A stretch of 64,000 nt of DNA from Candidatus Hydrogenedentota bacterium (GTDB taxonomy: Bacteria; Hydrogenedentota; Hydrogenedentia; Hydrogenedentales; SLHB01): assembly GCA_045863295.1 (NCBI GenBank), contig BTWA01000018.1, positions 50,170-114,169 on the forward strand. The letters are read 5' to 3'. This document shows, piece by piece, positions 48,901 through 60,900 of this stretch. How positions within the stretch are numbered: position 1 is the stretch's first letter; every line of letters begins with the position of its first letter. Position numbers: made by a program.

Positions 48901-51900
48901 GCCGTAGTCAATCTGGATGACCTTGCACGGTTCCGCGCGGAAAACTCTACATGGCGGCAGCAGGCGGGGCGGGGGGACAGTCCGGTAAATGTGCGCACGG
49001 TGGATTGCGGTACAGCCCCATTTCAACAGGCCCCTGTCGCCGATTATGTAAAGCAGATGCCCACGAACTTCTTCTTCCCGTCGAACGACGAGGTGAAGAC
49101 GATTGGCAACAGCGCGAATGGCTATCTCGATGAGTTGTATGCGGCCATGGCGCTTGGGCTTCGTGACTATTTCGAGAAATCGGGCGTGTTCCAGAAATTT
49201 CTGGTAGCCCTCTCCGGTGGAAGGGACAGTGCGCTGTGTCTGTTGCTGGCCGTTGAAGCAGCCAAGGCATTAAGGGGCGGCGCCAAAGCCACATCGCTGG
49301 CCGATCGGGTGGCGGCAGTCTATCTGCCAAACCGGGCTTTCAGCAGTTCGGCGACCGAAGACGCCGCCCGGGCAATGGCGACTGAACTGGGCGTGCCCTT
49401 TCAAGTAGTGGCAATCGAAGAGGAAGCCGCCATTGCTTTGACGAAGGCCGAAGAACTCATGGGCGAACCCGGCAGCGTGACGCCGCTTGCAAAGCAAAAC
49501 CTGCAGGCGCGCGTACGCGGCAACATGATGCTGAATTGGGCCAACAGCGCGCAGGGCTTGCTGCTGGTTACGTCCAATTTGAGCGAAGCCGCGGTCGGCT
49601 ACACCACTACGGGCGGTGACAATCAGGGCGGCCTTTCCCCAATTGCCAATGTACCTAAGACACTTGTAAGCCGCTTGCTCGACTACGTGGCTCAGCGGGA
49701 TGGGTTGACCTCCATTGCGAAGATTCTCGCCATCCCGCCCAGCGCGGAACTGGCCGACGATCAGCGCGATGAGGATGACCTGATGCCGTACGTCATCCTG
49801 GACGATCTGCTTTACATATTTGCCCGGCTGCGTATGTCCCTCCCAGACTGCTGGCGAATTCTCGTCCACCGGCATCCGGACCACAACACTGAAACCCTTC
49901 GCGAATGGACCGCGCGGTTCGGAAAGCTCTTTGCCTACAATCAGTGGAAGCGCGAACAGTTGCCGGTCTCCCTGAAGGTCCTCGATCTCGATCTCGATCC
50001 CAAGACCGGTTTCCGCTTTCCCGTTACGCAAAGCATTCAGGCGGAATTGGATGAATTGTCCACTGCAAGCCTGTAATCCTGCCCGTATGCATATTGGAAA
50101 TCATAAGAAAAAGGGCGGGAGGCTGATTCATGAACCAAACGGACATCATTGTGGAACTCGAGAGGTCGGGTGAATCCGTACTGAGGCAATACGACGCCCC
50201 GGAAATCGATCTCGCTAAGTCCTATGGCCCAGGGAAATGGTCCGTGCGCCAGATTCTTGCACACCTTGCCGATGACGAAGTCGTGTCGCTTTGGCGTGTG
50301 TGCAGAGCTGCCGCGGAGCCAGGCAGCCTCGTGCACGGATTCAACGAAAACGCATGGGCTGCGAAGCTGCACTACACGGAAAGGCCAATGCCCACCGCAA
50401 AGGTGTTATTCGCCGCGAACCGCGCGCAGATGATCGAATTCCTGCAACTCCTTTCACCAACCGTATTGGACCACACCATTCACCACTCCGAACGCGGTGA
50501 AATGACGCTGAAATCCTTCCTGGAGTCGGTGGTGTGGCACACGTGGCATCACCTCGAACAAATTGACGCGGCACGATCGGGCCGTATCTGGCCTCCCCAA
50601 GAGCCATGAATAGAAAGGGCACACCATGACCAAGGCAGAAATCCTCAAGGGATTCGAAGACTCAAGAAAGGCCGTGCTCGATCAGTTCGACGCCCCCGAA
50701 GCCGATTGGAACAAGACCTACGGTGTGGGCAAGTGGACCGTTCGGCAAATACTCGCCCACCTCGCCGATGTCGAAGTCGTGTGCCTGTGGCGGTTTCTTC
50801 GCGGCGCGGCGGAGCCGGGCAGTCCGGTCGAAGCCTTTGACGAAAACAAGTGGGCCGCTTCGCTTGCCTATGAGAGCCGCTCGCTCGCTGTCGCGCGAAG
50901 CACGTTTGAAGCCAACCGGAACCAACTCCTCGAGCTCATTGCCGTCATGCCCGAATCGTCTCTCAACAACACCATACTTCATAGTGAATCCGGTGAACTC
51001 AAGCTGGATTTCTTTCTGGGGAAGATGATTAAACATGCGTTCCATCACGTCGATCAGATCAGAGCCGCCCGCGAAGGTCGCTCCTGGACGCCGGCATAGG
51101 CGGGCTTGACTCCATTCGGGCAGTCCATAGGTAACGATCCCGTGTCAGGAATGCGCGAAACGCTCACTTAAAGAACGGATTCTAAATGGCGAGCGCTTCG
51201 ATCGTTTCCCCATGCCGCAATTCCTCACTGTAGAGCAGCCTGCATCCGGCATCGAGTGCGGACGCCACAATGAGCGCGTCATGAATGCCATACCGTAGTC
51301 GTGCCTCTGCCCTGCGGCAAATCTCGACGTTGCCTTATGGCTTACCGTATTTAGATATTCCTGAACCCCGCGAAATCGGATACATGCTCCCTAGCCGAAT
51401 TGTGCGTGATCCGTGCCGGATTTCTCCTCGTCAAGCACCTCAAAGAGTTTTTCTTGGGATATCAGTTCAATGAATGCCCTGTTGCATTGAAGATAAGTTC
51501 ACGTGAACCGGCAACTTCCGAGTGCAATGACCCTAAATCCCCGAGGTCCGGTGCAACACACTTAACCTAATAAGTGAAGACATCGGCACTCAACGTGGGG
51601 AGAACACCATGGCCCGCTGGTTCGACTGGAAGAGAAAAGAACGAAAACCCGTTTTCTCGCCCGTCGCGGAAACGTTCACCGAAAGCGAGTCCCGCTCACG
51701 AACCATTTCCTACGCCGAGGACGAGGCTGTCTGGCGCCAAAACATGGCCGGTCTGGTCCCTCTGCCCAATCAGACGCCCTTCTTCATGCTCCCTGTATAC
51801 CGCTTCCTTCGAGACTCTATCCCCGATATCTCGGACGCCGTATGGACATGGAAAAGGCTATGCCAAACCGGGTACGACATCGAAATCCTAAATGCCTCGT

Positions 51901-57900: not shown

Positions 57901-60900
57901 CGGCGACACGATCGCAGGCATTGTCGTCGACGGCGCTCCATGGCCCGATCTCCGGTTGATGCTGATCGATTGCGAAGAAACAAGCCTGAACAGCCATGCC
58001 GTAAGCAGACACCCCGAAACCGAATTCTGGACATCCGGCGAGTACAACGCGAGCGGATACAAATACAAAGCCGACGCCGCAAAGGCAGCCCTGCAGGACC
58101 TCATCAACACGAACGGAATCGACTATATCGAACTGAATCCACATCGCGACACCGAGGGAAATTTCGACGATCGCATCGACGCATTCGGACGCTACATCGG
58201 CCTTGTATACGGCGGCGGACAATGCCTGAATGCGGCTATGGTCGAGCTGGGCCATGCCGACGTGTACCTCTACCAGGATGGCAAGTTTCACGTGCCCGAA
58301 ATGGCGCTCAAGGATTTCTACTCCTACGCCGCACCGGCTCAAGACTCCGTGGAGGAAACCTCCGCCTCCCTCGTAAGCTACGACATCGCAGCCGGTGCAT
58401 TGGAAGCATTGACGGCGCTGGCCTACGCCGCCGGCGGATACATCTGGTCCGTGGGGCTGGACCTGGCCGTAACCTTCCGGAAGGCAACCGTCGCGGATAC
58501 CGTGGTTCACTTTGACCCCGTAGAGATGAGCGTAACGCTCGGCTCCGGCGATAGCGGCGTTGTAAACGCCGTCTTCTTCGAAGGAAATCCCGTGAATGCC
58601 CCGCTCGCAAAAACCTACGTGCGCAGCGCCAGCGTAAACGCGCTGGGATTCCGAAGCCGCTCACTGGAGTACGGCGCACTGCGCGTCGAAGCAGACGCCG
58701 ACCAACTCGTCTCCGGCATATTGGACGACACCGCATACCCGGTCGTAACCGGCGAAGTCTCGTTCCATCACGGCCATCCCGGTATCCACGCCGGCGATCT
58801 GATGGCCTTTCGCGGCGAACCGTTTCGCAGGCTGAGCCCCGCTCTCGACCACGAATGGAACAACGCATTCCCCGGCACATTAATCGCCCGCGCCGCGGAA
58901 GTCCGCCACAGGTTCTCCGGCCGCGTCGTAAACACGCGCGTGTTCCTGACATCCCCGTTGCGCTCCGTGAACGCGCCCATTGAATTCATGGTCCGCACGC
59001 AACCGCCGCTCGCCACCTTTTTTGAATTCCGTCTCGACAACGCCGTGGTCGGCCTGGACATGGGCTACCACCTGGACTGAGGAAAATCATGGCTATCAAA
59101 GGACAGGGATACGTAAAAACCACATGGGCCTTCGAAGAACGCCCCGTGGCGTCTTCCAAACTGAACACATGGGACGACCGAATCGAAGCCGCCCTGGAAC
59201 TCGCATTCCATCTGTTGAATCACGCATGGGGCGGAGATTCCGGCGTGCTGCGCAACGCAACAGCGGACGACCTGCGAGTCCACGCGACCACCCCGGAAAG
59301 CGTCCGCGTGCGAGTAGAACCCGGATACGCCTTCATTTCGAAATGCCCATTCCGGATGACCGGACCCGCCGAAACCGGCGATCTCGCCCCGCCCGCGGCC
59401 CAACCCCGGATCGATCTCGTTCAAGCGAGGCTCGACACCTGGTCCGTCCAAGTGCTCACCGGCGTCGAATCCGCCACCCCGTCTCCGCCTGTCGCGGGCA
59501 CGGACTGCATCGCACTCGCGCAAATCTACCTGCGCCCCGGAATGACCACCATCAAAGACGCCGACGACAGCGTCAACGGATACATCACCGATGTCAGAAC
59601 ATTCTTATAACGGACGAAACGACCTCCGCCTCGTCGCCGAGGTCGACGGCGAAAAACTCACCCACTTCCGGTTGAAAGAATTCGAAAACCGCCAAGGCCT
59701 CGCCATGGTCCATCGCACCGCTTTGGAATCCCTCGAAAGGGTCCGCCGTGAACTGCGCGCCATGGCCGGCGAAGACGTATGGATCATCGTCACCGACGCC
59801 GTCCGCACCCCCGAAGACCTGGACCGCCTCGCCGAGCGGCTCGGCTGGGCCGATCAAGGCGGGCTCGTCTCCCGCCGCTCCAAACACCTCGCCGAATTCG
59901 GCGGCATCGCCGTCGATATCGTCGCCGTGATCGCAAGCAACCGCGCCCGAGTCCCCCAGAAGACCCTCGGAAACGTGTGCCGATCCCATTTCGATTTCGT
60001 GAAAGACGACTACAAAGACGGTCACGTACACGCGGACAACCGCGAACGCGGCCGATGAACAATACCCAAAGGGAGTGAAAATATGGACTGGATAAACAAC
60101 GAAGCAGGCCTCGTCATGCTCAGCACCATCATCAGCGGACTATGGGCCTTCTTCAAATCGCAGGAATGGCTCCGGCTCGCAAAAGAACACAAGGGAGAAA
60201 AGGCGCTCCTGGCACTCGAAGCCGGCGTGCACCACGCCTACGAAGAATACGTGCGCGCCATCAAAGCCGCAAGAACCGACGGCAAACTCACCCCCGAAGA
60301 ACGCCGCCGCGCACGCGATCTCGCCGTGCATGCCGCCGTCGAATTCGGCCGAAATGAAGGCGTCGATGTCATGACAGAACTCGGCGTCTCCTACATCGAC
60401 GCCTGGCTTAAACGCCTCCTCCAACAAATAAAAACACACTGAGCGCGGGGAAAGCGGCGACGGACCTGAGTCGAGTTGAAACGACGAGACAACGGCCGTC
60501 GCCCTCCCCGCGACATCACGCGCGCAAAATCCGCACAGAAAAGAAAACCCGCATCAACTTCAAGGCCGAAACCGCTCACTGCCTGAATCACCAAACTCCG
60601 TGGCTAGCGGGACACCGTAAACGAACGAATCGCACGGACCACCCGGCCCTGGTCTGTCCGCTCCATGTCGTTGTAAAACGGAAGCCGGATCAACCGGTCC
60701 GAAATATCCTCCGTCACCGGGCATTGCCCCGCCTTGCCGCCAAACGAACGGCCCATCGGCGACAAATGCAACGGAAGATAGTGAAACACCGACAAAATCC
60801 CCTTCGACTTCAAATACTCGATCAACGCGTCCCGGCTCTCCGGTGTCGGCATGATCATGTAAAACATGTGATAGGCCTGGCTGCAATGGGCAGGCACATG

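Follow-up and report, generated by a model that had tools for sequence, protein, structure and literature searches.

A vertically inherited, phage-derived particle operon across the Hydrogenedentota, proposed as a gene transfer agent

Gene content of the operon

The window, a 64,000-nucleotide stretch of a Candidatus Hydrogenedentota contig (BTWA01000018.1), holds twelve co-oriented open reading frames, g11 to g22, between positions 51609 and 60442 (Table 1). Re-called reading frames and PHROG and Pfam matches agree with the first-pass annotation, which had listed twelve co-oriented genes for virion parts and enzymes. Motif analysis of the regions upstream of 37 portal genes recovered a promoter-like box, and 81% of these regions outscored the 99th percentile for 1000 random windows of the focal genome (G000). 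As that genome contains 91 sites of the same promoter type, the box is a common host promoter type rather than a private signal. Genes g11 to g22 are one operon behind a common host-type promoter, with genes for a head module and a neck followed by those for a minimal tail tip and a lysis pair.

Table 1. Features of the Hydrogenedentota particle operon, with positions in the window
Feature	Position	Strand	Length (aa)	Basis or remark
Promoter-like box GTGCAAC-N11-TAATAAGTGAAG	51551..51584	+		58 nt 5' of portal start; motif search
g11 portal protein, Mu type	51609..52871	+	420	phrog_3753 7e-49; PF06074 Portal_Mu 5e-8
g12 probable prohead protease (S78-like)	52915..53598	+	227	phrog_16951 2e-36; C-terminal Cys3-His cluster
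g13 small tail-anchored membrane protein	53603..53791	+	62	C-terminal hydrophobic stretch, max KD19 1.75
g14 LigD-type 3'-phosphoesterase domain fused to a helical, conserved C-terminal half	53817..54560	+	247 (from GTG)	
g15 decoration-like virion protein	54710..55117	+	135	phrog_4588 virion structural protein 7e-10
g16 HK97-fold major capsid protein	55132..56178	+	348	phrog_3922 4e-51; PF25209 (Phage_capsid_4) 6e-15
g17 head-to-tail adaptor, gp6/gp15 class	56234..56650	+	138	AlphaFold model, pLDDT 86.6
g18 distal tail protein Dit	56652..57338	+	228	PF22768 SPP1_Dit 8.5e-6; phrog_33 6e-9; phrog_5577 5e-9
g19 tail hub, gp27 / Mu gp44 / VgrG type	57329..59080	+	583	Model pLDDT 86.4
g20 conserved stub	59089..59610	+	173	Resembles N-terminal anchor part of longer phage baseplate/receptor-binding proteins
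g21 probable LAS/M15-type peptidoglycan peptidase	59591..60058	+	155	phrog_894, phrog_465 endolysin 1.6e-3, 6e-3
g22 holin-like protein	60083..60442	+	119	N-terminal membrane helix and conserved charged helical domain

In the head module, the portal was found in 38 of 40 loci fetched from 13 families; in the other two it lies beyond the contig end (L024) or on another contig (L010). Residues H58, H83, D84, S136, C146, C149, C156 and H158 of g12 are invariant, and its closest named Atlas clusters are Peptidase_S78 (0.93, 0.92) and S77 (0.91); since it matched no Pfam family and no PDB sequence, its assignment as an S78-like prohead protease is probable and is offered as a lead. The small membrane protein g13 is present in 29 of the 40 loci and g15 in all of them. 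The profile of g14 matched 3p43 (7e-8) and 3p4h (1e-6) in the PDB, and R43, H44, D46, H51, D53, R55, E57 and H84 are each at least 90% conserved; the gene appears to occupy the scaffold-gene position of head modules.

For the neck, a wide VIA-align search with the g17 model recovered the Mu neck subunit 5ydn (Z 9.7, rmsd 2.8, 93 aligned) and HK97 gp6 3jvo (Z 9.3, rmsd 3.0, 91 aligned), with phage neck proteins in 18 of the top 20 rows and an alignment to the RcGTA virion chain 6tba (Z 6.4); Foldseek alone gave nothing significant. On this modelled adaptor fold, a tail tube assignment for g17 was rejected. The tail tip consists of Dit (g18), the hub g19 and the anchor-like stub g20. The hub carries an inserted staphylococcal-nuclease (SNase) domain at about residues 185-325. 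Foldseek matched its model to 7aef_q (5.6e-12), 1wru (1.5e-8) and SNase chains (about 1e-6, TMt 0.65-0.70), and its profile matched SNase in the PDB (1.5e-7), with a weak direct sequence match. Residues D191, G192, T194, R209, E216 and R288 are invariant, and the nuclease domain looks active. PHROG matches of g20 cover the first 100-170 residues of virion proteins of 300-630 aa (2e-5 to 4e-3), and its Atlas structure rows reach viral clusters at TM 0.63-0.75, some with BppU_IgG, Collar or Phage_tail_C; its mean column identity is 70%, and no PDB sequence matched.

In the lysis pair, residues S97, H99, D109, H145 and H147 of g21 are invariant, with weak matches to 2vo9 (E 0.54) and, in one of 19 members, to Peptidase_M15_3. 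The gene is present in 19 of the 40 loci, and five further loci end too soon to judge. The N-terminus of g22 is hydrophobic, and 18 of 28 orthologues match the holin family phrog_13712 (best 4.3e-5), the focal copy itself having no match. The first-pass annotation had recognised no tail tube, tape measure or holin; a genome-wide family search of the focal genome likewise recognised no tube or tape-measure family, but g22 is holin-like. No small terminase, stopper or terminator was recognised. The description as a head and short-tail cluster stands and is sharpened by the adaptor and hub folds.

Terminase genes

A large terminase (TerL) occurs in 122 of 135 genomes of the phylum (83 of 86 of high quality), the same counts as first recorded. 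Its distance from the cluster ranges from 1 kb to 1.5 Mb. The description as unlinked fits most genomes, but not G034, G118 and G063, where the orthologous gene abuts the cluster. The focal genome has two related lone terminases (contigs C2 and C23), an orthologue and a family-specific paralogue, and a third within an ordinary prophage on C15. TerL lineage a mirrors the species split and takes in the three cluster-adjacent copies. The Walker A and B motifs are conserved in 43 sequences, as are the aspartates of the nuclease. Judged by sequence, the lone large terminase shares the ancestry of the cluster, with its ATPase and nuclease motifs intact. By presence and absence, however, its link to the cluster is weak, and TerL and capsid show no association: 105 genomes have both, 10 have the capsid alone, 17 have TerL alone and 3 have neither. 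In G072 (97% complete, 40 contigs) TerL is intact and portal and capsid were not found; conversely, the cluster is present but TerL is missing at E<=1e-20 in G001 and in the two genomes of f13.

Conservation across the phylum

The capsid gene was found in 115 of 135 genomes including the focal one (78 of 86 of high quality), 58-81% identical and with one match each, in keeping with the phylum-wide single copy previously noted in 114. Two matches, all fragments as reported before, occur in four assemblies (G120, G012, G044, G046), not three. Five capsid-less assemblies were checked, and at least three are contig-end artefacts. Gene order and strand, earlier compared in 14 loci, were identical in all 40. 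Some genomes carry the operon in separate parts, split or scattered, and both parts are intact: in G094 and G095 it is divided between g14 and g15 on separate contigs, with the portal intact, and in G034 an intact g20 lies about 890 kb from the cluster. Such scattering of TerL, g20 and the split operon, with the parts retained, resembles that of known gene transfer agents (GTAs).

The lack of a tail tube, a tape measure, a small terminase, an integrase and regulators, together with the loss of cluster parts in several lineages (G132 retains only portal and g12), would suit an old prophage in decay that no longer has a function. This explanation is all but refuted by the uniform gene order, by the retention of the cluster in 78 of the 86 high-quality genomes, by the invariant catalytic residues, and by twelve open frames that are all under purifying selection in five independent close pairs (omega 0.04-0.42; capsid 0.04-0.14).

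Vertical descent and relatives

The tree of the head genes has 16 of 34 splits in common with that of RpoB (500 shuffles: mean 0.23, maximum 3), the Mantel correlation between them (r 0.68) was reached in none of 2000 permutations, and both trees contain the same deep split with 100% support each. The RpoB clade missed by the free tree was not rejected by the AU test (p 0.715). This formal comparison supports the vertical inheritance first proposed. In a set of 185,579 species genomes, every one of the 68 closest loci belongs to the Hydrogenedentota. Among 50,697 phage records, identity to the best match is 34%, and a search of 2.9 million viral contigs yielded no close relative; trees, dN/dS and the lack of close viral relatives together support the earlier description of the cluster as domesticated and phylum-wide.

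Several observations would also be consistent with a mobile element, either a capsid-forming satellite or a transposing module, that only seems vertical through movement among close kin. The congeneric pairs G003/G006 and G077/G078 are homologous in DNA sequence from 100-300 bp before the portal gene up to the last cluster gene, and their flanks are unrelated; the sequences that flank the cluster in G003 are found in G006 on three contigs other than that of the cluster; short multi-copy repeats occur at the upstream cluster edge of G003; and in f14 and f15, the two most distant genomes, head-gene divergence scaled to that of RpoB is about half of what the rest show, less than RpoB predicts. 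However, the G003 flanks are also apart from each other in G006, which implies that the region as a whole was scrambled and not the cluster alone; no clean empty site was found in this comparison; and similarity is higher in the flanks (80-87%) than in the cluster (78%), contrary to what a recent arrival would show. Two or more flank genes are common to only 12 of 820 locus pairs, yet some sharing crosses families (for example f10-f6, 2-4 genes); the eight flank genes of the focal genome are not beside the cluster elsewhere, barring two weak matches. Those flanks (ABC1 kinase, NAD synthase and two DinB; DegT, a methyltransferase and GT2) are housekeeping genes as annotated, inspection of them revealed no integrase or transposase, and searches of the locus found no tRNA gene and no direct (att) repeat bracketing the cluster. 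Capsid-forming satellites (cf-PICI) share small capsid-gene sets, tail-less heads and reliance on parts encoded elsewhere; they encode an integrase, show packaging specificity and spread horizontally, unlike this cluster, which has no integrase or att site, occurs once per genome and has a tree that follows the host. With the absence of relatives from viral collections, these results make a mobile element quite improbable, and the cluster is very probably a host-owned, vertically inherited, phage-derived particle system (viriform) and not a prophage.

Comparison with known particle systems

Our search for a published account of this Hydrogenedentota system found nothing in print, and the comparisons below concern a predicted particle. 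In the uncultured gut phage MT835508 and its relatives (23-34% identity) a homologue of g12 lies between portal and capsid, the order found here, and the matches to Portal_Mu, the Mu neck subunit and HK97 gp6 point to Mu/HK97-type heads. The gut phages are whole phage genomes of 46-75 kb, whereas the cluster adds g13, g14 and g15 and stands alone in a bacterial chromosome.

Among the GTA traits described in a review are vertical inheritance, genes spread over several loci and release by lysis (PMC9953437), which this cluster would match. The RcGTA type (Rhodogtaviriformidae, also including CcGTA, of Alphaproteobacteria), as portrayed there, shares with this cluster chromosomal phage-derived genes from head to tail tip, vertical descent over a large clade, the absence of integration and replication genes and the scattering of parts to other loci; it is released by lysis (PMC9953437), and the Hydrogenedentota cluster holds a candidate lysis pair. 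Likened by gene content, the cluster differs from RcGTA in having no recognised tube, tape measure, stopper or terminator, a mostly unlinked terminase with no small subunit found, a Mu-type portal, a hub with a nuclease, a phosphoesterase in the head module and a host of another phylum. The tail tip of RcGTA has the order Dit, hub, peptidase, as here.

FpGTA of Faecalibacterium prausnitzii (Borodovich et al., Nat Commun 2026) forms capsids without a visible tail, with TerS and TerL in operon I; a second operon, at another chromosomal site, carries structural and lysis genes. Its particles, DNA of about 9 kb and proteomics were demonstrated experimentally (PMC12946183). It is a candidate GTA with genes like those of short-tailed phages (podovirus-like) (PMC12946183), as is this cluster. 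BhGTA, or VSH-1, of Brachyspira is placed in the Brachygtaviriformidae (Table 2 of PMC9953437). Likened by description, it and the present cluster would both be independently domesticated tailed-phage-like particle systems of non-proteobacterial phyla, with no known sign of common descent. VSH-1 has a long non-contractile tail, and its cluster is not known to include a terminase.

Proposed function

A GTA function of the operon is a proposal that we rate slightly short of probable. The operon would be turned on in a few cells, where procapsids would assemble and mature. The terminase, with no recognisable small subunit to give site preference, would pack heads with host DNA by headful; the adaptor would close the portal, and the Dit-hub tip would dock directly on it, with neither tube nor tape measure. 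Lysis of the cell would fall to the holin-like protein, joined by the peptidase in genomes that have it, and the released particles would carry host DNA to kin in the manner of GTAs. As one joint claim, we hold these steps to be plausible but somewhat doubtful. The tip nuclease may, as a guess, cut a path through a DNA-rich floc matrix, and the phosphoesterase may, equally speculatively, be carried inside the head to clean up 3' ends.

Several results cut against a simple GTA reading, namely the unassociated presence of TerL and capsid, TerL without a cluster in G072, and the loss of tail modules. Genes g17-g20, previously noted as lacking in f8, are absent from all four f8 loci, and also from f13 and the G014/G016/G022 branch of f3. 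The whole tail module was thus dropped in at least three lineages with head and lysis genes kept, and a fourth (G010, G018) dropped g19-g21; head genes are under selection in all four. Hub and g20 profiles matched nowhere in five tail-lacking genomes (positive controls 4/4), so delivery via this tail cannot be essential there.

The persistence of head and lysis genes under selection where every tail gene is lost would instead be consistent with a host-owned particle that has a job other than gene transfer and a conserved core of capsid, lysis genes and terminase. Such a particle could serve programmed lysis that releases capsid-protected DNA into the floc, could be armed with its tip nuclease and internal phosphoesterase to remodel extracellular DNA or attack competitors, or could act as a decoy or interference device against phages. 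The holin-like g22, retained in tail-less loci, is among the most widely kept genes, both enzyme domains keep their catalytic residues phylum-wide, and near-identical DNA occurs in sludge and bioreactor metagenome runs from several studies. However, the conserved packaging ATPase-nuclease, which shares the ancestry of the cluster, points to DNA in the heads, the adaptor, Dit, hub and stub are intact in most lineages and imply adsorption to cells, and none of 14 proteins matched a defence model; we consider a role other than transfer unlikely, though clearly less so than a mobile element.

Of the first interpretation, domestication is well supported and the GTA part stays a proposal; a host-owned viriform operon with a GTA-like cycle is our best overall explanation, which we rate about as likely as not. 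That the uncultured phylum Hydrogenedentota has inherited, and kept working, former phage genes for a lysis device and for a capsid with a very short tail tip is well supported, and their product, as predicted from these genes, looks like a new, independently tamed GTA-like particle of this phylum.

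Gene content and predicted structures

Twelve densely packed ORFs in one orientation make up the cluster, which is very probably a domesticated particle system owned by its host. The gene names proposed in the first-pass annotation were borne out by family scans through PHROG and Pfam-type matches (see the table), with weaker matches to a staphylococcal nuclease (SNase) for g19, a baseplate protein for g20 and an endolysin for g21. The upstream flank carries an ABC1 kinase, an NAD synthase and two DinB-family genes, and the downstream flank, on the opposite strand, a DegT aminotransferase, a methyltransferase and a GT2 glycosyltransferase. 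The two adjoining DinB_2-family genes, of 159 and 157 aa, are tandem duplicates, and the short repeats spaced 496 nt reflect this. There was no tRNA within 44000-64000 of the window, no direct repeats were found bracketing the cluster, and G+C content was 0.58-0.61 in the cluster versus 0.55-0.60 in the adjoining windows.

Features of the cluster and of related loci (window positions unless a contig, C, or a fetched locus, L, is named)
Feature	Position	Description
Cluster	51609-60442 (+)	g11-g22
Promoter-like box	51551-51584	upstream of portal gene
Portal, g11		phrog_3753 7e-49, Portal_Mu 5e-8
g12	52915-53598	phrog_16951 2e-36
Virion protein, g15		phrog_4588 7e-10
Capsid, g16		phrog_3922 4e-51, Phage_capsid_4 6e-15
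Dit, g18		SPP1_Dit 8.5e-6, phrog_33 6e-9
DinB_2 tandem duplication	50130-51099	upstream flank
Promoter-like box of large terminase	C2:99454	genome under study (G000)
Second lone terminase	C23:22413-23813 (L047:9830-11317)	genome under study
Prophage on C15	L006:800-19000	genome under study
Detached g20	C1:2742882-2743394	genome G034
Portal and g12 without capsid	L131:5475-7460	genome G132, contig C2
Accessory gene, g12-g13	L019:6284-7087	
Accessory gene, g12-g13	L029 (oriented) 5442-6743	
Accessory gene, g12-g13	L030:2124-3680	
Accessory gene, g12-g13	L034 (oriented) 5759-6979	
Accessory gene, g12-g13	L041:5690-6933	two pieces
Extra gene, portal-g12	L011 (oriented) 5618-6355	
Extra gene, portal-g12	L045:5657-6331	
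Extra ORF, capsid-g17	L011 (oriented) 9571-10662	genome G091
Multi-copy repeats	L017:5476-5524, 14587-15040, 15600-15700	30-50 bp

Structure prediction for g17 was confident (pLDDT 86.6), and an all-against-all structural search with the model ranked the Mu neck subunit 5ydn first (Z 9.7, rmsd 2.8 over 93 residues) and HK97 gp6 (3jvo, Z 9.3) second, phage neck or adaptor proteins occupying 18 of the 20 best rows; given this fold, a tail tube protein was rejected. Because Foldseek alone found nothing significant with the same model and helical bundles easily reach middling Z scores, we call g17 only a probable head-to-tail adaptor. Profile searches against the PDB with g17 and g20 gave no match. 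The g19 model (pLDDT 86.4) shows a hub of the gp27, Mu gp44 or VgrG type (7aef_q, 5.6e-12; 1wru, 1.5e-8) with an inserted SNase domain (~1e-6, TMt 0.65-0.70), also recovered in a profile search against SNase chains (1.5e-7), and the aligned metal-binding and catalytic positions of this domain are invariant across 28 orthologues.

The N-terminal half of g14 resembles LigD-type 3'-phosphoesterase structures (3p43, 7e-8), with a conserved His/Asp/Arg/Glu cluster, and its conserved helical C-terminal half would occupy the position of the scaffold in head modules. For g12 there was no PDB sequence match in a profile search and no Pfam match in 34 orthologues; its closest named Atlas clusters are the prohead proteases S78 and S77 (0.91-0.93), in the nearest phage a homologue has the portal on one side and the capsid on the other, and the gene probably encodes a protease. 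An Atlas structure search also aligned g12 to a domain of 762-aa Zixibacteria proteins (TM 0.80 by query), all of which have a DNA-ligase domain, an odd coincidence beside the LigD-type phosphoesterase domain of g14. The g20 product is similar to the N-terminal region of larger phage proteins of the baseplate or receptor-binding kind. Matches of g21 to M15 peptidases are weak, and it retains a Ser-x-His ... Asp ... His-x-His pattern that we take to be the mark of LAS/M15 enzymes. The g22 product has a membrane helix at its N-terminus, and 18 of 28 orthologues match a holin family (best 4.3e-5), the copy of the genome under study not being among them. None of 14 proteins matched the PADLOC 2.0 anti-phage defence models.

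A promoter-like box of common host type

The box upstream of the portal gene, GTGCAAC followed after a spacer of ~11 nt by TAnnnnGT(A/G)GA, also precedes the portal gene across the phylum. It is of a common host type, with 91 sites in the genome under study, 35-60 nt before many unrelated ORFs, and may on this pattern be the main promoter type of the phylum. Being so common, it links nothing specifically. A private regulon joining the portal gene with TerL-a, the large terminase of lineage "a", through this box was therefore rejected, given the 91 genomic sites and the lack of the box within 300 nt upstream of most TerL-a genes, where 12% of the regions score above the 95th percentile of the control. 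The TerL-a of the genome under study does carry the box, and because it lies 61 nt before an in-frame start, the sequence suggests a protein of 539 aa, not 553. A classical TTGACA/TATAAT scan of the region found no consensus sigma-70 promoters against 3.0 expected, and terminator-like sites were at chance (11 vs 11.5).

Distribution, descent and selection

The capsid gene was found in 115 of the 135 phylum genomes, including the one under study, and in 78 of the 86 of high quality, with identities of 58-81% and one match per genome except for fragments in four assemblies; the comparison gene rpoB was recovered from 126 of the 135 genomes and from all 86 of high quality. Among 185,579 species genomes, the 68 nearest loci are mostly titled Candidatus Hydrogenedentota, -dentes or -dentales, and the odd submitter labels among them belong to contigs identical to those of the phylum set. 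No close relatives were found in a viral contig collection, and the nearest phage sequences share 34% identity with the capsid and 27% with the terminase. Gene order and strand were identical in all 40 loci fetched from 13 families.

Concatenated head genes (39 genomes) were compared with RpoB on 37 genomes, leaving out G106 with its frameshifted rpoB and with G115 and G094 each lacking one data set. The two trees had 16 of 34 splits in common, where 500 label shuffles averaged 0.23 and never exceeded 3, and an identical deep split received full support in both; patristic distances were correlated (Mantel r 0.68), none of 2000 permutations reaching this value. Two apparent conflicts both involve long branches (family f13 with f3, and G061 with f8). 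In an AU test the RpoB clade of f6, f10, f12 and f13 was not rejected for the head genes (p 0.715), the constrained tree lying 23.9 log-likelihood units above a quick free search. In f14 and f15, head-gene divergence relative to RpoB is about half that of the other genomes. Nei-Gojobori omega was 0.04-0.42 for every gene in seven close pairs, five of them independent.

Rearrangement and flank turnover

Turnover of the flanks is rapid: of 820 locus pairs, only 12 have at least two flank genes in common, and homology ends at the cluster edges in two congeneric pairs. The flanks of G003 correspond to three separate contigs of G006, in which an empty-site test found no clean empty site. Because these flanks are also split from each other, and their similarity (80-87%) exceeds that of the cluster (78%), general scrambling fits better than recent insertion. 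Multi-copy repeats, 85-97% identical, occur in many places in G005 and G006, and one closely precedes the portal promoter of G003; these repeats may drive the rearrangements.

The cluster itself has also been broken in places. In the complete genome G034 it is without g20, which is intact ~890 kb away. Within one genus (labelled g13), G097 has the operon in one piece; in G096, 4 kb of inserted DNA carrying an ankyrin-like ORF separate g14 from g15; and in G094 and G095 a break between these two genes leaves the halves on separate contigs, with full-length portal frames. Such scattering with retention fits genes working in trans for the host, as described for gene transfer agents (GTAs; PMC9953437).

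Extra genes are inserted in some loci. Five have a secreted-looking accessory gene (267-518 aa; conserved N-terminal motif SPRYLEEL.IGGGYG) between g12 and g13, which the genome under study does not have. An extra gene of 224-245 aa between portal and g12 has the IAKGDAVKL motif of g15 and is on that account probably a paralogue of the decoration-like protein, and one genome has a 363-aa ORF separating the capsid gene from g17.

The terminase

The first-pass annotation described the terminase genes as unlinked to the cluster. This holds for most genomes, TerL-a lying at a distance of 10-16 kb in G095 and G096 and of as much as 1.5 Mb elsewhere, but it adjoins the cluster in three others, ~2 kb (G034) and ~1.4 kb (G118) upstream of the portal and ~1 kb downstream of g22 (G063). 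Terminase-portal adjacency was therefore probably the ancestral state, later broken up.

A search of the genome under study gave three phrog_2 matches. The copy on contig C15 lies inside an ordinary prophage with a small terminase, portal, resolvase and replication genes, and the copies on C2 and C23 are lone genes amid housekeeping genes. The prophage, unrelated to the cluster, encodes small and large terminases, a portal/adaptor-like protein, a Holliday junction resolvase, a DnaD-like replication protein, a helicase and a tail-fibre-like protein, and its terminase match contained one TAG in the first genome search. The C23 copy, 61% identical to that on C2, neighbours a dCTP-deaminase-like gene, a beta-lactamase-domain protein and an ECF-type sigma factor. 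In a tree of 47 copies, lineage "a", with the C2 copy, reproduces the split seen among species (98% support), lineage "b", with the C23 copy, is a paralogue restricted to part of family f1 (100% support), and four further copies are distant, at 42-48% identity. Across 43 TerL sequences, Walker A, Walker B and three acidic positions of the nuclease, presumably the catalytic motifs, are conserved. No small terminase was found beside TerL, where the adjoining small ORFs show no conservation and appear to be non-coding.

Over the 135 genomes, capsid and TerL were both found in 105, capsid only in 10, TerL only in 17 and neither in 3, a noisy table, confounded by contig ends, that gave no signal of association. 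Five capsid-less assemblies were checked: in three, a contig ends inside the cluster; G072 has an intact TerL and neither portal nor capsid; and G132 (10 contigs, 92% complete) has a full-length portal, g12 and intact TerL-a, with no other cluster gene within the next 12 kb and no capsid anywhere in the assembly.

Comparison with known systems

GTAs, according to PMC9953437, are non-infectious, vertically inherited sets of host-chromosomal tailed-phage-like structural genes in several loci; they package mostly random host DNA, are induced by stress, lyse the producer and transfer DNA to recipients. Here, the cluster combines structural genes with none for replication, integration or lysogeny. 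Vertical inheritance is indicated by the tree tests, with the low divergence of f14 and f15 and the flank turnover as caveats, and the genes are spread over several loci (TerL 1 kb to 1.5 Mb away, g20 in G034, the splits in G094 and G095). Producer lysis would fall to the holin-like g22 (18 of 28 orthologues) and to g21, M15-like by weak matches, under a common host-type promoter. The three defining GTA features that are open to an in silico check are all present, and on this showing the system would work as a GTA does.

Its architecture is a different matter. In GTAs of the RcGTA type (Rhodogtaviriformidae), genes for a tail tube and a tape measure separate the head genes from Dit/hub, whereas only the adaptor lies between capsid and Dit here; PF10145, PF04630 and PF06199 had no match in the genome under study, while controls matched in 8, 1 and 2 genomes, respectively. 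The short-tailed FpGTA candidate (PMC12946183) is nearer in spirit than the RcGTA type, whose architecture the cluster does not share.

Other classes fit less well. A prophage was rejected, as no integrase, repressor, replication genes or att sites were found at the cluster, parts of a kind that the C15 prophage does have. Satellites of the cf-PICI type have an integrase and a packaging specificity of their own (small terminase) and spread horizontally; this class was set aside given no integrase, no conserved ORF beside TerL, one copy per genome and a host-like tree. The hub fold of g19 is common to tailocins and contractile injection systems, which combine a sheath or tube with a baseplate and lack a capsid, but capsid and portal are present here and no tube or sheath was found. 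An encapsulin, an HK97-fold shell without portal or motor, is at odds with the portal, adaptor and TerL. We found no description of this system in the literature. No RNA data set was listed among those containing the stretch. Four metagenome runs with the stretch provided contigs only (two are labelled RNA-Seq and are probably DNA), and no joints were seen in these contigs.

Tail loss and the possible purpose of the particle

In every one of the four f8 loci, in that of f13 and in three of f3 (G014, G016, G022), the capsid gene is directly followed by g21-g22, and G010 and G018 have kept only the adaptor and Dit of the tail genes and lost g19-g21. Housekeeping genes come directly after these loci, and hub and g20 profiles, which matched in all four control genomes, were absent from five genomes of this kind that are 95-97% complete. 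On the RpoB tree, the complete tail module was thus lost three times independently, in addition to the partial loss in G010/G018. Head genes of tail-less lineages are still under selection (omega 0.05-0.13, G052/G053). The tail module is dispensable.

The genomes establish the parts list of the system, its integrity, its descent and the selection acting on it. In the mechanism we propose, a host-type promoter would drive the operon; portal, protease, g14, g15 and capsid would build and mature a head; TerL-a, with no recognisable specificity subunit, would pack whatever DNA is available; and the adaptor would close the filled head. In most lineages a tip of Dit, hub and stub would dock onto the adaptor, the tube being absent, and g22, together with g21 where present, would lyse the cell.

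That this is a gene transfer agent in the strict sense is a serious possibility, at slightly below an even chance. Its main rival, a particle with another job than gene transfer, strikes us as rather unlikely, and what credit we give it is owed largely to the tail-less lineages. It is improbable, at a lower level again, that the tail is optional and the unit of selection consists of capsid, terminase and holin, forming a phylum-wide program by which a fraction of the cells lyse and release capsid-wrapped chromosomal DNA for use by kin without tail-mediated injection. Kin might, for example, take up the DNA after the capsid opens, or it might serve as protected matrix DNA, and the nuclease-tipped stub and packaged 3'-phosphoesterase would be accessory DNA-end tools. 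If true, this would be an undescribed kind of viriform, a tube-less, tail-dispensable DNA-release particle.

Known GTAs come from a handful of lineages, and each independent domestication shows how often phages are tamed and which parts are kept. The system described here spans a whole uncultured phylum that is common in sludge and bioreactors. Its adaptor would be joined to a Dit-hub tip with no tube, with a nuclease in the tip and a DNA-end repair domain in the head module, and several lineages provide natural tail "knock-outs". These features offer handles on the minimal particle under selection, and on gene transfer versus another purpose.
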